The notes: generated by a model not told the origin, from the sequence alone. A stretch of 64,000 nucleotides of DNA from Bdellovibrio sp. (GCA_036676395.1 JAKFCY010000002.1:1312001-1376000); one strand, 5' to 3'. Positions 7,924-19,689 are shown, numbered from the stretch's first letter. A program made the numbers and translations.

Positions 7924-9171
7924 CTAGTACGGCTGTCTTTGTTCAGAATTTCCTAAATCCATTGCCATAGTTAGCGCGATTTTAGAAAAAAGTTTTGCAT
8001 GCTCAAAGCTCATTACTGGGCTGATAACATCTTGGGGAGTATGGATACTTTTGAAAGAAGAGTCGAATTTAGACTCTGTCGGAAACAAAGTCGCAAAGCC
8101 TTGGCGGTGCCATGAAGCATGGTCACTACAACCATAACCGCATTGGTCTTCTTGAACAGTGGCATGAAAGTAAGTGTTGTTTGCAGCCACTAAATAGTCG
8201 CGTAACCAACGGCTTGTAAAATCAGTCATGCTAGCAATCTTTAAAACACCATCACCAGGAAACATCGTCATATCTAATTGAAGAACAGCGATGATATCTT
8301 TTTGCTGAGCTTTAGCTTCTTTTGCGATTTCAGCAGAACCAAGTAAGCCAGACTCTTCACCGGCGTACCAGTAAAATTCAATCGTTCTTTCAGGTTGCGG
8401 TTGTAAAGTTAAAACACGTAAGGCTTCAACTAAAGCTGAAGAGCCAGAAGCATTATCATCAGCACCCGGAGCTTTTGATCCCATACCCATAAATCCGCTG
8501 ATTGAATCTAAGTGACCACCTAGAACGATAATTTCTGACGGGCGAGTAGAGCCTTGAATAGTCAGCTTAATTGATTTTTGTGGCGTTGATTTGTGGCTAA
8601 CCGTTTCGATATTGATTGGGTAGTTAGCTTGTTTTGCGATCTCAGCTAAACGATCCATGAACGGGTTGATGTGGTTATTCGGGTTTGAACCTTTATTATA
8701 ACGTGTCGGAAAAGCAGATAAGAATTCAACCGTATTGCGAATTTTATCACCACTTAATTGTTCTAAAGCTTCAGAGATTTCAGCGCGAGCTTCTAGGTCT
8801 TCAACTTGTGAGAACGATAAAACTTGGTTTCTTTTATGATATGTATTTAAAGCTTCAAGTTGTTGGCGTACAGAAATTAGATCACGTGGCATTTCATCCA
8901 AAGCCTCGAAGTTTCCGCAACGACCGTTAGCGTGAGCAAGCTCTGAAAGTTTGCCTTCAGACGCTGAATTTAACACCGCATAACCTACACCAGTTTCTTC
9001 ATCTTTATATAGAACTGGAATATTGGCTGCGCGTAATAGCTTAAGATCCGCTAATACAGGCTTAAACACCAGAGGGTCACCGTGTTGGCCGTGGGCATTT
9101 AAGATCGGAGTTGAGTTGAAAATTGTAAGTGTAATAAGAGATGTGGCAATAAGACGTGTGGTATTTTGCAT
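7924..9171 (-). CDS. M28 family leucyl aminopeptidase
   Basis: GGHLDS, GADDNASG, GEESGLLGS, LQLDM and CSDHASW motifs; signal peptide. Confidence 0.92.
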   Translation of the reverse strand: MQNTTRLIATSLITLTIFNSTPILNAHGQHGDPLVFKPVLADLKLLRAANIPVLYKDEETGVGYAVLNSASEGKLSELAHANGRCGNFEALDEMPRDLISVRQQLEALNTYHKRNQVLSFSQVEDLEARAEISEALEQLSGDKIRNTVEFLSAFPTRYNKGSNPNNHINPFMDRLAEIAKQANYPINIETVSHKSTPQKSIKLTIQGSTRPSEIIVLGGHLDSISGFMGMGSKAPGADDNASGSSALVEALRVLTLQPQPERTIEFYWYAGEESGLLGSAEIAKEAKAQQKDIIAVLQLDMTMFPGDGVLKIASMTDFTSRWLRDYLVAANNTYFHATVQEDQCGYGCSDHASWHRQGFATLFPTESKFDSSFKSIHTPQDVISPVMSFEHAKLFSKIALTMAMDLGNSEQRQPY

Positions 9172-9283
9172 AGATAAATCTTAGCTATGAAAATTTCATG
9201 AAGCAGCATTTTCACTCTTGAGTCTTGCAATTCTAGACTAAAGATAGTGAGCGTAAAAACATGGCACCAGAGAGTCCCGCGCA

Positions 9284-9300
9284 TTGGCACGAGCCTTGTA
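9284..9300 (+). promoter_or_regulatory. Sigma54-like promoter (GT at -12)
   Basis: TTGGCACGAGCCTTGTA. Confidence 0.6.
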
Positions 9301-9346
9301 ATACCCTTTGTGAGCGCCTTTCAAAGGGCGTTTATTTGGAGGACGT

Positions 9347-9790
9347 ATGACGAAGTTTCTGACAGTGATGACTATTTTTGGTCTTTTCGCGTTTAAAAGC
9401 TATGGATTAGATATGAATGATTTGAAAAATCTGGCTGAAGCGATTGCTCAATTCAAACAATCGGTGCAAACGATGGAAGCCGTGTATGATAAGGGCGTGA
9501 TCAAAGCTGATTTAGTTGCGCTTAAAAAAATCAACGCAAGCACTGCTGCAGTTTTAAAATATTGCCAAGTGATCGAAACGAAATTTCAGGCAAAAGCGCC
9601 AGAAGTTTTAGCGCGCAAACAAGAAGCTAGAAATCGTGCGATCGAAAAGTCTGAAAGTTTATTAGATGCATCGGATGCTGATTTAAGATCAGCCCAAGTT
9701 GATTTCGTGCGTGGTTTAGAGACAGCGAAATACTGCTTAGGCTTAACAAGTCAAATGGCCGCATCGATTCGCGCCTCTATTTCGCAGTAA
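9347..9790 (+). CDS. Hypothetical secreted alpha-helical protein
   Basis: Strong SD GGAGG, signal peptide, helical composition. Confidence 0.75.
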   Translation: MTKFLTVMTIFGLFAFKSYGLDMNDLKNLAEAIAQFKQSVQTMEAVYDKGVIKADLVALKKINASTAAVLKYCQVIETKFQAKAPEVLARKQEARNRAIEKSESLLDASDADLRSAQVDFVRGLETAKYCLGLTSQMAASIRASISQ

Positions 9791-9828
9791 TCAATGGGCG
9801 AAGCCCAATAATTTTAGCTAGTTAAAAG

Positions 9829-11433
9829 CTAAAGCTGAACTGATTTTACGACTTTAAATTTACTATCGTACTTACGCACTTCGGGTGTTTGTAGTTCTAC
9901 AGACACCTTTATAGTTTTTGCGGCTCCAAAAGCAGCACGTGAAACCTCAAACTGATTAAATAAAGCAGAAATTTCAGAACCATCAGCGTTGAACCAGCGT
10001 ACGCTAAGGCCAGAAACATTTGGAGTTTCTACTTTAACTGTACTTGAAGTTTTAACAACAGCATCAACAAGTGAAACGCGATTCAGAAATTTGTGCCACA
10101 TATTTTCTTGGTCAACGGCGCAGAAATGTTTAAGAGCCATATTGCGCATCAAGCAGCCATCGTGAGTTGGGCGGTACGTTTTACCACTAAAATCACCATA
10201 AGTTGCAAACGCCGCAGTTACATTTTTTTCAAAGTTAAATCCTTGTGGGTAAGAATAAATGTAAGCGGTTGCTAACATATTATCGCCATCAGCAATATTT
10301 TCTTTAATTTCTAAAGTGTTACCGCCTACTTGCGTTTGAAGATTATCAAGTACGAAGAAGTTTCTATCGTTATGATAAGGCCCACCTAAGTTAAGTTTTT
10401 GGCCGTTCACATAAACATAGACATCATCAGGGCTAGACCAGCCAACCACGCTTAATTCTAAACCTAAGGTTTCGCCAGCTTGGGTTTTAAAAGTCGTTTT
10501 GTAAGGCTTGTTTTTTAAATTTTGCCAAACGTAGTTACCGCTTAAAAGTTTAGCGTCGTAAGAATTTTTATCATCGCGCCATTGTGACCAGTGCGAAGCC
10601 TGAGCATTCGATGAAGAATTGGCTCCCGAATATACAGATCCACCGTCATACTCTTCGCCAACTTCGCCGAAGTTGTGACCAAGTTCATGATTTAATACGA
10701 CCATACCACTTCTGATAGAACTTGTTGAAATTGCATAGCGGCCACCTAGACCACCATAATAATCATCATTGGCAATTACGATCGGATAGTCGGTGCGTTC
10801 AACCATATCAAGTGCGCTTTCTAAAGCGCGTTCGTCGCCTGGGTAAATCGCGCGTTTTGAACCTTTTGGCATACGGTATAAGCCATAAGCTGTGTCTTTT
10901 GATTCTCCATCGCCAATACCTGAAGTGTTTGATGGAACAAAAACCGCATGAACTTGAAATAAAGACAGATAACTTGAGAATGTTGAAGTTCCAAAAAGAT
11001 TTTTAGTCGTGCGTTCAGCATCGGCAAAGAACTTTTCTTTTTCTTTTAATGTGTAGCCATCACCTAAAATCGTTAAATGAATACGGTTGGCTGCAGGACC
11101 CTCTGTAACAAGTTCGCGAACTTCAGCATTTGCAATATTAACTTTAACTTTTCTTTGTAACGCTTTGTAAAATGCTAATTCAGATTCAGTCAGCGAATTT
11201 TTAATTTCATCTATATATATAGTGTTGTTGTCGGTGCCTGGCCCTTCAACTATATAGTAGGGAAGTTTTCGCAAGATTTTTTCTGGCTGTTCTGAAACTT
11301 CTGAAACATTTAAAACTTCTGATGAACGATTTTTAGAAGAAACTTTTTTCTGCACGCGAAAACTTTCGGCAGAACAAAGTGATGAAATTAAAAGCGCTGT
11401 TGTAAAAATAAAAATGTTCGAAGTGTTTTTCAT
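9829..11433 (-). CDS. M64 (IgA peptidase-like) zinc metallopeptidase
   Basis: ILGDGYT, HELGHNFGEVGEEY and YRPT..CLMR..FC motifs; signal peptide. Confidence 0.85.
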   Translation of the reverse strand: MKNTSNIFIFTTALLISSLCSAESFRVQKKVSSKNRSSEVLNVSEVSEQPEKILRKLPYYIVEGPGTDNNTIYIDEIKNSLTESELAFYKALQRKVKVNIANAEVRELVTEGPAANRIHLTILGDGYTLKEKEKFFADAERTTKNLFGTSTFSSYLSLFQVHAVFVPSNTSGIGDGESKDTAYGLYRMPKGSKRAIYPGDERALESALDMVERTDYPIVIANDDYYGGLGGRYAISTSSIRSGMVVLNHELGHNFGEVGEEYDGGSVYSGANSSSNAQASHWSQWRDDKNSYDAKLLSGNYVWQNLKNKPYKTTFKTQAGETLGLELSVVGWSSPDDVYVYVNGQKLNLGGPYHNDRNFFVLDNLQTQVGGNTLEIKENIADGDNMLATAYIYSYPQGFNFEKNVTAAFATYGDFSGKTYRPTHDGCLMRNMALKHFCAVDQENMWHKFLNRVSLVDAVVKTSSTVKVETPNVSGLSVRWFNADGSEISALFNQFEVSRAAFGAAKTIKVSVELQTPEVRKYDSKFKVVKSVQL

Positions 11434-11605: not shown

Positions 11606-11621
11606 TGGCACTTATGTTGCT
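11606..11621 (+). promoter_or_regulatory. Sigma54 -24/-12 promoter
   Basis: TGGCACTTATGTTGCT, a consensus match, upstream of SD GGAGG. Confidence 0.85.
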
Positions 11622-11661
11622 CAAACACTCTTAAAACAAAACATCCTAATGGAGGGATTTT

Positions 11662-12618
11662 ATGAATAAGAGTTATGCGCGTTACTTAAAACTAGTTTCT
11701 TTATCATCACTTTGCGTAGCATTCGTTGCTTGTAGTGGTAGCGGTTCAGGTGGATCTTCTCCTGCAGCAGCACCTGTAGAAGCAGCATCATCAGAAATGG
11801 TGGCTTCAGGAAATACTCTGCGTATTTCTAAAGTGGCTGATTATCACTTAGCTGCGGGCGGCGAATTAGCCGGAACTCCAGCTGCTAAATTAGCAGAAAT
11901 TTTAGCGAAACACCCAGCTTTAGCTGAGCGTGCGAATCTATTAGGAACAGTAAATAGAGTTGTTGAAACTGATAAAGGCACTTGGGATTTGTATGCCGGT
12001 GAACAAATCGTAATGACACTTTCTTCTGCTGACCGTAAAGCATTAAATATCGTAAGAACACGTTCTGCGTTTACTGCTGATGGTATCACTTTATTATCTT
12101 CAAATGTAGAAGTTAAACATTCTGAAGCAATTCGCTTTGCAATGTCAGATTGCTCTGCAAATGCTGTAGAACCAGGTCAAGGACAAGATCAAGGTCAAGG
12201 CCAAGGCCAAGATAAAGACCAAGATAAAGACCAAGATAAAGACCAAGATAAAGACCAAGACAAAGACCAAGACAAAGATCAAGACAAAGATCAAGATAAA
12301 GACCAAGATAAAGACCAAGATAAAGATAAAGACCAAGATAAAGACCAAGATAAAGATCAAGATAAAGATCAAGATAAAGATCAAATGGCCCAAAACTGTG
12401 TCTCTGTCGAAGCTACACTTCTGTTAGAGCAGGAGCCTGGACAAGGTCAAGATCAAGGACAAGGTCAAGATAAAGATCAAGATAAAGACCAAGACAAAGA
12501 CCAAGATAAAGATCAAGACAAAGACCAAGACAAAGACCAAGATAAAGACCAAGACAAAGACCAAGATAAAGATCAAGACAAAGACCAAGACAAAGATCAA
12601 GACAAAGACCAAACTTAA
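11662..12618 (+). CDS. Lipoprotein with two (Asp-Lys-Asp-Gln)n repeat tracts
   Basis: Lipobox FVAC (Cys24), Ser/Gly linker, 14 + 12 DKDQ units each preceded by EPGQGQDQGQGQ. Confidence 0.9.
   Translation: MNKSYARYLKLVSLSSLCVAFVACSGSGSGGSSPAAAPVEAASSEMVASGNTLRISKVADYHLAAGGELAGTPAAKLAEILAKHPALAERANLLGTVNRVVETDKGTWDLYAGEQIVMTLSSADRKALNIVRTRSAFTADGITLLSSNVEVKHSEAIRFAMSDCSANAVEPGQGQDQGQGQGQDKDQDKDQDKDQDKDQDKDQDKDQDKDQDKDQDKDQDKDKDQDKDQDKDQDKDQDKDQMAQNCVSVEATLLLEQEPGQGQDQGQGQDKDQDKDQDKDQDKDQDKDQDKDQDKDQDKDQDKDQDKDQDKDQDKDQT
12211..12384 (+). repeat. Coding 12-bp tandem repeat GAYAAAGAYCAA (14 units plus one extra DK)
   Basis: Read directly; variation only at synonymous GAT/GAC positions apart from the single half unit. 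Confidence 0.95.
12469..12612 (+). repeat. Coding 12-bp tandem repeat GAYAAAGAYCAA (12 units)
   Basis: Read directly; 144 bp. Confidence 0.95.
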
Positions 12619-12650
12619 TTGATTGAAATCAAATTCGAAAAAGTCTAAGG

Positions 12651-12682
12651 GTGGGTAGCGGTAAAACGCTGCCCACTTTTTT
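12651..12682 (+). terminator. Intrinsic terminator after the repeat lipoprotein
   Basis: GTGGGTAGCG-GTAAAA-CGCTGCCCAC followed by a T tract. Confidence 0.85.
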
Positions 12683-12698
12683 AAGATGAGGGGATGTT

Positions 12699-13508
12699 AT
12701 GAAATGGTTATTTGTATTTCTGCCTTTAACGTTATTAATTGCCTGTAAACCGAAAACAGAGGCCATCATTGAAGAGCCAGTAATGCCATCTGAAATTGCT
12801 CTATCTGATGTGTCTTTTGGAAAATGTTTAAATTTAGAAAAACTATCGCGGGTGTTTCAAAACCCCGATTTTAAAGTGCCCGCAGCACTTATGACGACAG
12901 ATTTAAAACCTGTAGGTGAAATGCCGCAGGCGAAAAAAACTTTTTTTTCTTACGCTACTTTTAATTATAAAGTGAACAGCGCAAACGAGCTTGGGCTTTT
13001 TAATCAAGTGCGCCAGAAAGATTGTAAGACCGTCCAGATGTTATCAGCTTCTGAAGAAGTTTTGACTTACAAAGTGACTGCTTCAAATGAAGCCGAAATT
13101 ACCATCAAGTTAGTTGATAAATTTCGCGATAACATGGCTACAGCTCACAAAAAAGCCTTAATAGATCGTCAGCAGCCATTCGAATACACGTTTCGTTATT
13201 TAACGCCAAATCATATGTTGATCAGTGAAAAATACACGACCGTGGATCCTCTGTGTATTTCGAAAAATCCGCTTACATTTGAAATTCATAAAGATTTAAC
13301 TTGGGCTGGACGGTATTCAGATTTGCCGCAAAGTTATCAAATCGAAACTCGGTATTTAAATCTTGTGAAAGAATCTCTGATACCTGAGGCTCAAGGATTA
13401 ATTCCAACAACAGAAACAGCAGAAACTTCAGAAAGTTTTTCTGTAGACTCGATCCGTACGGTGATGCGTTCATCTTTAAAAGACGAGCTTAAACTGTGCA
13501 GCCAATAA
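12699..13508 (+). CDS. Hypothetical lipoprotein
   Basis: Lipobox LIAC; SD GAGGGG; overlaps the next gene. Confidence 0.8.
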   Translation: MKWLFVFLPLTLLIACKPKTEAIIEEPVMPSEIALSDVSFGKCLNLEKLSRVFQNPDFKVPAALMTTDLKPVGEMPQAKKTFFSYATFNYKVNSANELGLFNQVRQKDCKTVQMLSASEEVLTYKVTASNEAEITIKLVDKFRDNMATAHKKALIDRQQPFEYTFRYLTPNHMLISEKYTTVDPLCISKNPLTFEIHKDLTWAGRYSDLPQSYQIETRYLNLVKESLIPEAQGLIPTTETAETSESFSVDSIRTVMRSSLKDELKLCSQ

Positions 13509-14635
13509 ATACTGTTTTTTTAATTCTGTCTATTCTGCTTTTAGGAGCTTGCGCTAAAGACGAAAAATACGTTCAAGCGACATCTCCTTTTTGCCAAAGT
13601 AACATGGTTAAAAATCAGTATATTGTACACTGGAAAAAACAAGATCCAACTTTATTGGCTGAAGAAAATCTTGCCAAATTTATTTCGCTCAATGATGACG
13701 AAATTGACTTTGTTGAACCCAATTACACTATCCTTGCTAAATTTGCAAAAAAACAGGAAGAGCCGGTGATTCCGTCGATCACTAGCGTTGAATCTGCAAC
13801 TGCAGTTTATGATATGATTCATGTGCGATCGGCCTGGTACCGGGGATTTTTCGGTCAGGGTTTAACTGTCGCTGTCGTTGATACGGGAATAGATCAAAAA
13901 CATCCAAGCCTGCGACGAAGACTTGTGCCAGGCTGGAATTTTGTTTCTAATGCTGCAGATTCTAGTGATGAAACCGGTCATGGTACAGCTATGGCGGGTA
14001 TTATTACCGGCCCATATTTAAATGGTTCAAGTTTAAGTTTAGCACCTGATGTAAAAATTATGCCTATAGATTTTATGACTGATCACGGTGGCACCGAATA
14101 TCATGCGCAGCTTGCGCTAAACTATGCCATCACCCACAAAGCTAAAATTATTAATAATAGTTGGACGGTCAGCTGTTCAGAGCTTTTACGAAGTTCATTT
14201 GTTAGCTGGGCCAATGAAAATGTAATTTTCATTAATTCGTCAGGTAATGAACCCGTAGATGTTATTACTCATGGAATTTTACCGGCAAGCTTAAGCCTAA
14301 GTAATCATGTGCATGTGGGTTCATTAGATGATCGCGGGCATCGATCAAGTTTTAGCGGTTTTGGTTACACCGTTTTGTTGTATGCCCCGGGAGAATTAGT
14401 TCCAAGTTTTGCCCAGAGTGATAGCGGATCGCGTAGCGTGCGAATTTCAGGAACCAGCGCATCGACCGCCATAGTTTCTGCAGCAGCAGCTTTATTATGG
14501 AGCGCTTTTCCGCGTGCCACGGCCAGCGAAATAGTGTCGTTAATTGTCGAAGGAGCTCAGCAGGAGCTGACTATAGAGCCGACCCTTAACGTGCAACAAT
14601 CTCTGCGTCTGGGACGCGAACGTTTTTCAGAATAA
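13496..14635 (+). CDS. Lipoprotein S8 (subtilisin-like) protease
   Basis: Lipobox LGAC; VVDTG, GHGT, SSGN and GTSAS motifs (triad present, divergent after the Ser). Confidence 0.85.
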   Translation: MQPINTVFLILSILLLGACAKDEKYVQATSPFCQSNMVKNQYIVHWKKQDPTLLAEENLAKFISLNDDEIDFVEPNYTILAKFAKKQEEPVIPSITSVESATAVYDMIHVRSAWYRGFFGQGLTVAVVDTGIDQKHPSLRRRLVPGWNFVSNAADSSDETGHGTAMAGIITGPYLNGSSLSLAPDVKIMPIDFMTDHGGTEYHAQLALNYAITHKAKIINNSWTVSCSELLRSSFVSWANENVIFINSSGNEPVDVITHGILPASLSLSNHVHVGSLDDRGHRSSFSGFGYTVLLYAPGELVPSFAQSDSGSRSVRISGTSASTAIVSAAAALLWSAFPRATASEIVSLIVEGAQQELTIEPTLNVQQSLRLGRERFSE

Positions 14636-14639
14636 TCTT

Positions 14640-15926
14640 TTAAGGAACAATGCTTTCATTGAGCAGGGCTTCGGCGATTCGACTTAAGACTTTTCCTTTT
14701 TGTGAAGCTTCTCTGGCCTTAGCGGCGTAGCTATCGGGCAGACGAGAATCTAAATCCCAGGATTCGTTTAAAGTTAAATCTTCAGCTGTCATCGCGCGGC
14801 CTGTGCTGGCGTAAGACCAGATAAAATCGGGTCTTGCTGCTGAATGCCATTCGCCACCGATTACGGTGTAGCTTTCATCTAATTCTAAATCGTATACAAA
14901 GTTGTATGATTTAGTGCGATCGTTGCGGCCTTCGTTGACCGCCGGAGTGACTAAAGAAGGAATAAATACATCCATTGCAACCCCGACAACGTATTTTGTT
15001 CTAGGGCTTCGGTGGATTTTGAATTTATCAGCCGTCATATTTTCAATGGGTTCTATAGCGGCTTTAATATTGTGAGTGGTTTCGAATGTTCGTGGGTTAA
15101 AGTAGCTGTAGTCATAGCCTTTAACTGCGAAATTCCATACTTCTGATCCGGTGGTTGAATCCATCACAAAACTTTTTTGCTGCACACCAACGCGATTTGT
15201 AACAGCTAAATGCCAACTCATCGGATTTGAATCAAGGCAAGACGCATCTATAGGACGCTGATACGGGTCTTTAATAACGATATCTTGGCGACAGCGATTG
15301 CCGGCTTGAATTGAATCTGTGCTTGATTCGGCCCAAAGATAAGACATTAAGGCTTTGATATCTTGCCTGTAAAATTCGATCGCATGGTGGCCATTGACGT
15401 CGGTCACAACCACAGATTGGCGTGGGGCTTTGATGCCCATGTGGACTGCCGCAGACCAGCCGTGACAAATTCCTGTCCATGTTGGAACTTCGCCGTACTG
15501 AATTAAAGTTTTTTGTCCGCGAGCCCACATAGCTTTGGTTAATGTCCAGTTTGCATCCCCAACCAGTAGGTCATATTTTTCAGCTGGAGATAGGCGATTG
15601 ATTTGCCCCGAGTAAACCAGGGTTTCTGGAGGGCGCAGCATGTGGTCGTTGTAATTTTCTAAGAAATTTTTTGATTTAGGAAACAAGGGGTCGGCATAAC
15701 GCAGTCCAAGTAAACCTTGGTGAATTGGCCAATAAGAGCCAGCCCAGATTTCATATTGGGTGTGGCCTTGCGTCAGTCGAGTTTGCTGAAGATCAAAAAT
15801 ATTTGCGATATAACTTTGTTTATCAAGAAAAATTTTAAAATCATCGTCACGCATAGGCTCCGAGAACGGGCTTACCGCCGTGGTTAATGCTGTCGCTGCT
15901 ATAAGATTGAAAATTGTTTTTGTCAT
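14640..15926 (-). CDS. Transglutaminase-elicitor (Phytophthora GP42-like) family protein, secreted
   Basis: WAGSYWP, LSPAEKYD, WTGICHGW, DIKAL, DSNPMSWH, and Pep-13-like VWNFAVKGY; signal peptide; SD GGAG before 15926. Confidence 0.85.
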   Translation of the reverse strand: MTKTIFNLIAATALTTAVSPFSEPMRDDDFKIFLDKQSYIANIFDLQQTRLTQGHTQYEIWAGSYWPIHQGLLGLRYADPLFPKSKNFLENYNDHMLRPPETLVYSGQINRLSPAEKYDLLVGDANWTLTKAMWARGQKTLIQYGEVPTWTGICHGWSAAVHMGIKAPRQSVVVTDVNGHHAIEFYRQDIKALMSYLWAESSTDSIQAGNRCRQDIVIKDPYQRPIDASCLDSNPMSWHLAVTNRVGVQQKSFVMDSTTGSEVWNFAVKGYDYSYFNPRTFETTHNIKAAIEPIENMTADKFKIHRSPRTKYVVGVAMDVFIPSLVTPAVNEGRNDRTKSYNFVYDLELDESYTVIGGEWHSAARPDFIWSYASTGRAMTAEDLTLNESWDLDSRLPDSYAAKAREASQKGKVLSRIAEALLNESIVP

Positions 15927-15963
15927 AATACACACTCCGTACAAAGATTTTCATCAATAGAGT

Positions 15964-15979
15964 TGCACTATTTATTCCA
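15964..15979 (-). promoter_or_regulatory. Sigma54-like promoter of the transglutaminase gene
   Basis: TGGAATAAATAGTGCA on the minus strand (GG-N10-GC). Confidence 0.6.
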
Positions 15980-16116: not shown

Positions 16117-16476
16117 ATGATTATTTGTATGAGTGATGTGAAAAAAAATATTTTAGTCGGAAATATATCAATTTGTAACCATAGCAGAAAGGTTGTCGTT
16201 CGTGATGAGCAAGATTGCGAACACACCTTAAAACTCACGCAAACTGAATTTAGACTTTTGACTTGTTTGGCAAGTCGGCCCGAAAAAGTCTTTTCACGAG
16301 AAGAGCTCTTCGACAAAGCCTGGGGGCAAGATCCGCGCGATATGGGTCGAAATGTAGATGTGCATATTTGCCAGGTTAGAAAAAAACTAACTGATAAAAG
16401 CACGCACACGGTAAAAGCCCTGTCAGGTGTAGGCTATAAACTAACACAAAGGCGAAAAGTAAAAACGCAAATCTAA
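16117..16476 (+). CDS. Stand-alone OmpR/PhoB-type winged-helix DNA-binding protein (no receiver domain)
   Basis: LTQTEFRLL, FSREEL, RNVDVHICQVRKKL and GVGY motifs. Confidence 0.8.
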   Translation: MIICMSDVKKNILVGNISICNHSRKVVVRDEQDCEHTLKLTQTEFRLLTCLASRPEKVFSREELFDKAWGQDPRDMGRNVDVHICQVRKKLTDKSTHTVKALSGVGYKLTQRRKVKTQI

Positions 16477-18816: not shown

Positions 18817-19689
18817 ATGTTAAGAATAACTTTTCTAATTACAACTCTTGTTACGCAATTAACATGGGCGGCATCACCAACAACCACGGTTTCTGCTGCC
18901 GTAAAAACAAAATCTGCCGCAAAGCCAACATTTGATTTAGTTTCAATAAAAAAACTTTATGACAAAGATTCAAAAGAAGATATTAATGCTAAAGGCGACA
19001 AGGGTTGGGCATTGCTGCATCACGCAGCTTTAGCGAACAAAGCTGATATCGTGGCCTTTGCTTTAACAAAAGGGGCGCAAATTAATGCGCAAGCAAACGA
19101 TAAATCAACACCGCTCATAGTAGCTTCGCAAGTTGGCGCAAAACAAGCCGTCATGTTGCTTACAGAAAAAGGGGCCGAGATCAATGCGCGTATGACGGGC
19201 GGATTTACCGCGCTTCATTTGGCGGCCCAGCAAGGGCAAACTGAAATTATAAAAATCTTAATCGCTGCAGGCGCTGATAAAACTTTATTAAGCGAACCTA
19301 AAGGCAGTGGCTTGCAACCGATCCATCTTGCGGCGTTGGGCGGGCATGTTTCGGCAATGAGCACATTATACAAAGCCGGAGTTTCCATCGATGCTTTAAC
19401 AGGGGATAAAAAAACTCCACTGATGATTGCTCTTGCAGCTAAACAAGATAAAATGGCGAACTTAATCGTAAACACCGGGGCAAATTTAAACGCTGCCGAT
19501 TCACAAGGGTTAACCGCATTAATGATTTTATCAAGTCATGATGGCAGTCTAGAGCTGGCTAAAAAAATGATAGATAAGGGTGCAAAGCTTGAAATCGAAT
19601 CTAAAGGTAATGCGACCGCTTTAGATTACGCTAAATCTAAAAAGCGTGATGATTTGATAAAGTATTTTGAATCAAAGGGCGCGAAATAG
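18817..19689 (+). CDS. Secreted ankyrin-repeat protein
   Basis: Several G.T(P/A)LH.AA...GA.IN repeats; signal peptide. Confidence 0.92.
   Translation: MLRITFLITTLVTQLTWAASPTTTVSAAVKTKSAAKPTFDLVSIKKLYDKDSKEDINAKGDKGWALLHHAALANKADIVAFALTKGAQINAQANDKSTPLIVASQVGAKQAVMLLTEKGAEINARMTGGFTALHLAAQQGQTEIIKILIAAGADKTLLSEPKGSGLQPIHLAALGGHVSAMSTLYKAGVSIDALTGDKKTPLMIALAAKQDKMANLIVNTGANLNAADSQGLTALMILSSHDGSLELAKKMIDKGAKLEIESKGNATALDYAKSKKRDDLIKYFESKGAK

Follow-up and report, generated by a model that had tools for sequence, protein, structure and literature searches.

A Glutamine/Lysine-Repeat Lipoprotein Paired with a GP42-Type Transglutaminase in Bdellovibrio Relatives: A Candidate Envelope Cross-Linking System

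Positions 11606-15979 of a 64-kb stretch of DNA from Bdellovibrio sp. (GCA_036676395.1 JAKFCY010000002.1:1312001-1376000; hereafter the window, from a source genome of 3.4 Mb) hold four genes: three plus-strand lipoprotein genes and, convergent on them, a minus-strand gene for a secreted transglutaminase of the GP42 type. The first of the lipoproteins joins a predicted beta-barrel to two long tracts rich in Gln and Lys. We find that the genes for the enzyme and for this repeat lipoprotein recur together in related genomes, and that the tracts, whose repeat units change from genus to genus, appear to be constrained in their Gln and Lys. We put at about even the chance that the locus is an envelope protein-cross-linking system with the repeat lipoprotein as its dedicated transglutaminase substrate. 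A preliminary description of this DNA had made the same proposal, and every sequence feature that it reported can be seen at the positions given. Tract composition and the conserved, reciprocal gene pairing favor the proposal; the S8 protease is not part of the conserved core, the sigma54-type promoter claimed for the enzyme gene is weaker than stated, and the suggested reinforcement of the bdelloplast is unlikely. As judged from the sequences, the conserved core is the enzyme and the repeat lipoprotein, usually with a 269-residue lipoprotein. For the enzyme gene, the nearest named relatives are a Bdellovibrionota metagenome-assembled genome (90% identity), Bdellovibrio sp. qaytius (87%), and Pseudobdellovibrio spp. 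(82%–83%).

A Conserved and Reciprocal Gene Pair

The pairing was sought from both sides. A search starting from the enzyme yielded 38 loci from named genomes. A homologue of the barrel lipoprotein is present in 19 of them, another ten are cut before the place where it would be expected, and nine lack it; these nine carry the most distant enzymes (27%–40% identity). For the search starting from the barrel, a profile of the domain only, with the tracts excluded, was run against 384 genomes of the order. The barrel was found in 51 of these genomes and an enzyme homologue in 122, and the enzyme also occurs in 49 of the 51 barrel genomes. The two genes lie on one contig, 344–4987 bp apart, in 40 of the 51, and 21 of these 40 linked genomes have them as a divergent adjacent pair separated by at most 839 bp (344–839 bp). 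They fall on different contigs in nine further barrel genomes, all fragmented assemblies. As for the two barrel genomes without the enzyme, the homologue of one (L062) has neither tracts nor lipobox, and that of the other (L061) has a tail poor in Lys.

Among 51 other genomes of the window's genus, both genes are found in 19, the enzyme alone in two, the barrel alone in none, and neither in 30; no statistic is attached to these counts because kin are not independent. Both genes are absent from a genus of the same family represented by 44 genomes. Where present, the pair stays together through at least five different gene orders, with an S8 protease gene (one type, the other, both, or neither) and usually the gene for the 269-residue lipoprotein lying between or beside the two. 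Every homologue to which a source gives a name is called a "hypothetical protein." The preliminary description had named the lack of a TGase_elicitor match, and of a conserved linkage to Gln/Lys-rich proteins in other genomes, as grounds for refuting its proposal; neither ground applies, the match being strong and the linkage to Gln/Lys-rich lipoproteins being both conserved and reciprocal.

A quick maximum-likelihood tree of 74 enzymes places all 33 linked enzymes, together with ten from cut loci, in one 43-row group (Shimodaira-Hasegawa-like approximate likelihood ratio test [SH-aLRT] 92), and all 30 enzymes that have no Gln/Lys neighbor outside it. We take this single group to mean that the pairing arose once and was then kept. 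The single sister row of the group (support 91) is the enzyme of locus L071, from a genome of another family of the order (G227). Directly upstream of that enzyme, L071:3364-4575(+) encodes a 403-residue lipoprotein made of about 35 tandem LPKQx units. It differs from the barrel protein; Lys and Gln are retained, and the acidic residues are gone.

The Enzyme Belongs to the GP42 Transglutaminase Family

Transglutaminases join Gln to Lys, and GP42 is a Ca2+-dependent member of the class. The enzyme gene (14640-15926, minus strand) encodes 428 residues from its ATG; the protein has a signal of the Sec type but lacks a lipobox Cys. A hidden Markov model search bears out the family proposed in the preliminary description: the protein matches Pfam PF16683 TGase_elicitor with E 3e-32 and 112.2 bits (cut-off 25) over profile positions 18–340 of 361, and it matches the solved GP42 chain 3TW5 with E 1.8e-22. 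In the latter alignment the GICH of the window protein meets GISH in the chain, which we take to be a Cys-to-Ser mutant of GP42. The signature blocks that had been reported are all in the translation (WAGSYWP, SPAEKYD, WTGICHGW, DIKAL, and VWNFAVKGYDYSY), and the last of these, the Pep-13-like stretch, aligns to VWNQPVRGFKVYE of GP42. The Cys-His motif of WTGICHGW (Cys154-His155) is intact and, by the 3TW5 alignment, sits at the GP42 catalytic position. Adjacent Cys and His are described as the unusual catalytic arrangement of GP42 (PMC10318531). Across 29 homologues the invariant residues are W61, D119, W150, G152, C154, G156, W157, D189, G209, R211, V263, N265, W360, P366, D367, and W370; H155 is replaced solely in two paralogues of the window's own genome.

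That genome has two further PF16683 genes (L002/L004, G000:C2:2069453-2070721; L003, G000:C3:541154-542482). Both read W-E-G-H-C-N-G-W as against W-T-G-I-C-H-G-W, with the His before the Cys and not after it, and on this sequence evidence they may form a subfamily with a shifted catalytic dyad. They were rejected as members of the system, with H-C-N replacing I-C-H and with no Gln/Lys-rich neighbor.

Architecture of the Repeat Lipoprotein

The repeat lipoprotein (11662-12618, plus strand; an open reading frame [ORF] call) has 318 residues, and a Pfam search gave no family. Export signals are present on all four proteins of the locus, and the three plus-strand proteins have lipoboxes, identified by eye without a predictor: FVAC24 in the repeat protein, LIAC16 in the 269-residue lipoprotein, and LGAC19 in the S8 protease. 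The preliminary description had called the first of these a (DKDQ)26 lipoprotein, and a count confirms the 26 DKDQ units exactly; they fall into runs of 9, 5, and 12. At the DNA level the array has a period of 12 and 34.7 copies with 78% matches; given this match rate and the near-equal use of the Asp codons (GAT 28, GAC 27), the DNA copies of the repeat are non-identical. Among 4483 ORFs of at least 80 residues in the window's genome, the 40-residue window richest in Gln plus Lys belongs to the repeat protein, tied with one coiled-coil-like ORF. Two ORFs on the opposite strand, 12145-12393(-) (82 residues) and 12424-12612(-) (62 residues), read (ILVF)n and were set aside as shadows of the array, not genes.

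An AlphaFold2 model built on 17 homologues gives a predicted local distance difference test score (pLDDT) of ~90 for residues ~45–165, 67–82 for residues 246–257, and less than 50 for the tracts, which are thus predicted to be disordered. In this model the protein is an eight-strand beta-barrel whose last strand is supplied by the stretch between the tracts, 246–257. Tract 1 (residues ~172–242, nt 12175-12387) lies between Cys164 and Cys246, and tract 2 (residues 259–318, nt 12436-12615) is the C-terminal tail. Because C164 stands at the end of the barrel and C246 at the start of the closing strand, tract 1 would be a long loop, probably closed by a Cys164-Cys246 disulfide. All 17 homologues share C24 and C164, and C246 is found in at least 90% of them. 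Fold searches pointed to no specific relative and returned only a generic eight-strand barrel of the lipocalin, avidin, or small outer-membrane protein type (VIA-align Z ≤6.8; Foldseek best E 1.0), and the ESM Atlas gave no usable lead for this lipoprotein or for the 269-residue one. A complex prediction for enzyme residues 25–428 with repeat-lipoprotein residues 45–318, from 17-row alignments, scored 0.00 and is uninformative either way.

Two other members of the family are modular. L048:2222-3736(-) (504 residues) and L070:1686-3545(-) (619 residues) consist of seven to nine near-identical modules of the form ADxGQGQGQ(GQDK)n...K.TVA, which shows very rapid expansion of the tracts. Elsewhere in the window's genome, G000:C2:142198-142731(-) encodes a 177-residue barrel-paralogue lipoprotein in which a short Cys-Cys loop replaces tract 1 and the tail is 18 residues of DQ/DK; similar paralogues occur in four relatives (L063-L066).

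What Is Conserved in the Tracts

An exhaustive profile search of 1.84 billion proteins shows the barrel family to be small: at the level of 50% identity it has 86 representatives, 67 of them with a lipobox pattern. A word-index search with barrel residues 44–166 gave no match, which, given those 86 representatives, we treat as a miss of the index. Across homologues the tracts range from about 30 to more than 450 residues, and their units differ by genus: DKDQ, GQDK, DQGK, DKGQ, QEQGK, EEQKQ, EEPKQ, EEPKQDQ, and EEPKQDQDQTPDK. Composition was measured in 34 tails totaling 5143 residues (one mis-parsed as a whole protein) and compared with the ORFs of at least 200 residues in the window's genome. 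Q/(Q+N) is 0.94 in the tails versus 0.44 in the genome, and K/(K+R) is 0.96 versus 0.65. D/(D+E) runs from 0 to 0.98 between homologues. Of the 75 family representatives that have at least 30 residues beyond the barrel, 60 contain at least 10% Gln and at least 7% Lys. Hence, despite changing units, the sequences indicate that Gln (not Asn) and Lys (not Arg) are constrained and that Asp and Glu are freely swapped. Under selection for charge, hydration, or disorder alone, Arg would be expected to stand in for Lys, and Asn for Gln, as freely as Asp and Glu stand in for each other. This is not seen, and a role as glutamine-donor and lysine-acceptor substrate therefore fits better than a plain charged spacer.

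A Proposed Mechanism and Its Rivals

If the tracts are the substrate, the lipoprotein would be made from a sigma54 promoter and anchored in an envelope membrane. Cys154 of the enzyme would form a thioester with tract glutamines, and the acyl group would be transferred to tract lysines of neighboring molecules, or to other amines. The product would be epsilon-(gamma-glutamyl)lysine bonds that build a covalent, protease-resistant layer or cement. The 269-residue lipoprotein and the S8 protease or proteases would be accessory, by our guess the one as an assembly factor and the other in enzyme activation or trimming. The tracts as substrate, the compartment, and the purpose of the product are all things that we infer; candidates for the role are a coat on the cell surface, a tether linking the layers of the envelope, and a cement between predator and prey. 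One version we rate as a long shot: during epibiotic predation the enzyme would use the tracts as a cement, coupling the lipid-anchored protein covalently to amines of the prey's surface or else to the wall of the predator itself. If this is true, the system would be a bacterial, convergent counterpart of cementoin and the cornified envelope in mammals, and would give the first case of two bacterial cells attached by isopeptide bonds. Reinforcement of the bdelloplast, a role offered in the preliminary description, was rejected as unlikely: the lineage of Bdellovibrio sp. qaytius and Pseudobdellovibrio spp. is described as epibiotic (PMC11656739), and the 44-genome genus of the same family is without both genes.

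Several points weigh against a dedicated substrate. Of the 122 genomes in which an enzyme homologue was found, 73 lack the barrel partner, and 19 of the 20 barrel-less enzyme loci examined have no Gln/Lys-rich neighbor. Since the pairing has a single origin, the linked genomes are not independent events. Barrel paralogues far from the enzyme also bear short DQ/DK tails, so that an adjacent enzyme gene is not required for such a tail; these distant paralogues may serve as additional substrates in trans, or they may speak against a strict coupling of enzyme and tract. Acidic disordered regions rich in Gln, Lys, and Glu are common spacers. For the enzyme, the third polar catalytic residue, which would be an Asn on a beta-strand or an Asp on a helix in contact with the His, has candidates only: N265, D119, and D189, all invariant, and D232, which at most three of the 29 homologues lack. 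Papain-fold enzymes of this kind can also hydrolyze or deamidate, and literature searches found no biochemical data on any bacterial PF16683 protein. Finally, in the mammalian protein trappin-2, which carries a GQDPVK repeat, the Gln and Lys of the repeat are, by the account in PMC3110255, not the reactive sites with epidermal proteins.

The alternative that survives best, though we regard it as unlikely, makes the tracts a hydrated negative spacer, brush, or cation-binding tail (compare Ser-Asp repeats and linkers of the TonB/TolA type). Such a tail would space the barrel from the membrane or cover the surface, the enzyme would act elsewhere, and the pairing would reflect co-regulation or shared ancestry alone. 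The predicted disorder of the tracts agrees with this, as do the tails of the distant paralogues and the single origin of the pairing. So do the NCBIfam matches of the repeat protein, which are low-complexity Sdr/Clf SD-repeat matches alone (21–31 bits against cut-offs of at least 999), and the Pro-rich EEPK units of some homologues, which resemble periplasm-spanning linkers. A spacer should, however, accept Arg in place of Lys and Asn in place of Gln as readily as Glu in place of Asp, and exchange is seen between Asp and Glu alone. The LPKQx variant beside the sister enzyme is acid-free yet keeps Lys and Gln. It would also be left unexplained why the pair has survived at least five rearrangements and why the two genes are jointly present or absent within one genus.

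Less probable again is a role for the barrel lipoprotein as an inhibitor or chaperone of the papain-fold enzyme, or as a decoy for self-protection, with which the predator would shield its own envelope from an enzyme secreted as an anti-prey weapon. There are precedents in staphostatin and staphopain, in potempins and their proteases, and in the ankyrin-type immunity proteins of Bdellovibrio. The divergent adjacent pair of 21 genomes, at 344–839 bp, has the arrangement that enzyme-immunity pairs typically show, the relatives of this organism are predatory, and the partner is a predicted eight-strand barrel for which Potempin E is one of the weak matches by Foldseek (E 1.7, probability 0.14). 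By fold, however, the matches are of a generic kind (Z ≤6.8), the top VIA-align rows being unrelated barrels (Z 5–6.8). The long Gln/Lys-constrained tracts, and the 500–620-residue versions with eight or more modules, are left without a reason; a sacrificial decoy would explain the tracts, yet this remains an enzyme acting on the tract.

The weakest alternative, which we consider improbable, is that the PF16683 protein is a hydrolase (a protease or Gln-to-Glu deamidase) that processes, remodels, or releases the tracts without cross-links: the papain-like superfamily is described as including proteases and amidases (PMC10318531), transglutaminases are reported to deamidate with no amine at hand (PMC11087917), and the Glu-rich tails of some homologues could mimic a deamidated state, but GP42, the sole characterized member of the family, is described as a transglutaminase (PMC10318531), and the strict retention of Lys has no role in deamidation or cleavage.

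Promoters and RNA Evidence

The repeat-lipoprotein gene has a sigma54-type -24/-12 promoter, TGGCACTTATGTTGC (11606-11620, plus strand), which is an exact TGGCAC-N5-TTGC, the sole exact match to that pattern in the window, and which predicts a +1 near 11632. As the preliminary description had it, the gene also has a strong Shine-Dalgarno sequence (GGAGG at 11651-11655(+), by direct reading, 6 nt 5' of the ATG) and its own intrinsic terminator at 12651-12682(+), with a 10-bp stem including one G-T pair, a 6-nt loop, and T6. Upstream of homologous genes, 19 of 32 sites carry a sigma54 element with at most one mismatch and 30 of 32 one with at most two; the 32 include one paralogue and the LPKQx gene of L071, whose own sigma54-like element has one mismatch. 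Among 2000 random 380-nt windows the corresponding counts are 19 and 83. Taken as a sequence element, then, the sigma54 promoter of the repeat gene is a conserved feature.

A second sigma54-type promoter had been claimed for the enzyme gene, and there the claim does not hold in the same way. The element in question, TGGAATAAATAGTGC (15965-15979, minus strand), is weak: it keeps GG-N10-GC, with three mismatches to the ten specified bases. A match as good occurs in 348 of 2000 random windows of the window's genome, and it is not significant alone. A TGGAAY..TGC element recurs in relatives.

Each of four soil metatranscriptome libraries gave a contig of 556–595 nt over 11644/58-12205, which carries the 5' 560 nt of the repeat gene, with 6–10 differences (~98%–99% identity). 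The contigs start at 11644, 11645, 11651, and 11658, ~12–26 nt past the predicted +1, and one has a loose end that by eye resembles adapter. Taken from RNA libraries alone, these starts are a weak hint of the 5' end of the repeat-gene transcript. The enzyme gene is represented by short contigs alone, at depth 2–5 and 90%–94% alike. No contig from the four runs covers 12688-15100, where the genes for the 269-residue lipoprotein and the S8 protease lie, a gap that proves nothing. Because contigs cannot rank expression, no conclusion is drawn on relative expression or on a monocistronic transcript.

Accessory Proteins and Neighboring Genes

The preliminary description had placed a lipoprotein and a lipoprotein S8 protease between the two end genes, and both are there, at 12699-13508(+) and 13496-14635(+), the start of the second overlapping the first by 13 nt. 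The first encodes 269 residues with four conserved Cys, of which C43, C109, and C186 are invariant in homologues. Its AlphaFold2 model (pLDDT 84) has a barrel-like domain, for which fold searches gave no clear solved relative (Foldseek best E 1.9e-3, template-modeling score 0.14–0.20; VIA Z ≤6.3, calycin-like). In most related loci this gene adjoins the repeat-lipoprotein gene.

The S8 subtilase lipoprotein has 379 residues, with an N-terminal extension of ~95 residues before the catalytic domain, and matches Pfam PF00082 Peptidase_S8 with E 4.7e-42. Its catalytic motifs are present as VVDTGID (DTG), HGTAMAG (HGT), and GTSAS, and the best NCBIfam match is mycosin, at 149 bits under a cut-off of 279. 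An S8 protease gene does accompany the pair at this locus; it is not part of the conserved core, since the S8 partner varies between loci and may be the window's S8, a second S8, both, or none. The second S8 lipoprotein (~490 residues) lies between the enzyme and S8 genes in most relatives (L010-L020, L028, L035; for example L035:7487-9013). The window's lineage is without it here, and L006-L009 carry a lipoprotein-like ORF of 142–144 residues in its place.

Divergent to the enzyme gene, 16117-16476(+) encodes a 119-residue OmpR-type winged-helix DNA-binding domain alone (Trans_reg_C, E 1e-22), without a receiver domain; it is syntenic in L005-L009. On the other side of the locus, 7924-9171(-) and 9829-11433(-) encode a secreted M28 aminopeptidase-like protein and a secreted M64 (IgA-peptidase-like) protein, which with the S8 gene make a run of exported peptidases. 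These two genes (7924-11433) were rejected as core parts, their synteny being limited to the closest relatives, L005-L009. Farther away, 18817-19689(+) encodes a 290-residue ankyrin-like repeat protein with a signal peptide (by eye); ankyrin-type self-protection proteins are known in Bdellovibrio.

Comparison with Known Systems

Spore coats, skin, and blood clots are known to contain protein layers built by transglutaminases. Full-text literature searches (Bdellovibrio with transglutaminase; PF16683; lipoprotein, outer membrane, or predatory) found no description of such a system, and in the literature searched there was likewise no description of a transglutaminase-built layer in a Gram-negative envelope and no function assigned to a bacterial member of the GP42 family. 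The word "transglutaminase" has zero occurrences in the comparative-genomics papers searched on these predators. The principle of a transglutaminase that acts on dedicated Gln/Lys substrates has precedents in spore coats and mammalian envelopes. New here are the family to which the enzyme belongs, the architecture of the lipoprotein, the setting in a Gram-negative predator, and the conservation of the gene pair. Should the substrate reading be true, it would give bacterial GP42-type enzymes their first function and a natural substrate, add a new kind of covalent structure, for envelope or adhesion, to those of predatory bacteria, and yield a compact, genetically encoded pair of enzyme and tag (GQDK/DKDQ tracts), possibly useful for protein immobilization.

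The closest comparison for the enzyme is GP42 of Phytophthora sojae (3TW5, PF16683). The catalytic domains are homologous, both proteins are secreted, and they share the adjacent Cys-His, VWN within the Pep-13 region, and three further blocks, D.NP, DIKAL, and PDF.W. GP42 differs in being a eukaryotic cell-wall protein, and we know of no dedicated substrate for it. The bacterial enzyme has a conserved partner gene and conserved extensions beyond the Pfam domain, of ~50 residues N-terminally and ~45 C-terminally.

The Tgl spore-coat system of Bacillus subtilis (GerQ, SafA, YabG) is described as having a cross-linked protective layer, dedicated and partly disordered substrates, and a protease in the pathway (PMC6490927, 10.64898/2026.02.03.703564, PMC13553755), features that the proposed system would share. 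Unlike the system proposed here, it uses an unrelated enzyme family, operates in the mother-cell cytoplasm of a Gram-positive sporulator, and acts on substrates that are not lipoproteins. To our knowledge those substrates have no short tandem Gln/Lys repeats and are not encoded beside tgl. The transglutaminase of Streptomyces mobaraensis resembles the window's enzyme as a secreted microbial protein, and has protease inhibitors as substrates. Its activity depends on extracellular proteases. It belongs to a different enzyme family, and we know of no repeat substrate or conserved gene cluster for it. SSTI is named as a transglutaminase substrate in PMC3110255. Braun's lipoprotein Lpp, as described in PMC10653827, offers a parallel of another kind, being an abundant outer-membrane lipoprotein linked through Lys to an envelope polymer by an envelope enzyme; the enzyme there is of the LD-transpeptidase family, the reaction is a transpeptidation to meso-diaminopimelic acid, and Lpp is a helical trimer without repeats.

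For the tracts themselves, the nearest likeness is to the mammalian repeat substrates trappin-2 cementoin, involucrin, SVP-1, and cornifin, which are described as short, disordered tandem repeats that offer Gln and Lys with Asp or Glu beside the Gln, and which anchor a folded domain covalently or build an envelope. Trappin-2 cementoin is reported to have five GQDPVK units, likened to SVP-1, involucrin, and cornifin (PMC3110255), and in involucrin short Gln-rich tandem repeats are said to make up between one half and two thirds of the protein (PMC2192633). The GQDK, DKGQ, and QEQGK units of homologues of the window protein resemble these repeats. The mammalian proteins differ in showing no homology, in serving the animal transglutaminase family, and in having no lipobox lipid anchor. 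If the tracts are indeed substrates, they would be convergent with the GQDPVK repeat of cementoin and with involucrin. Such a result would be a clear case of convergence between a predatory bacterium and mammals on Gln/Lys repeats as transglutaminase substrates.

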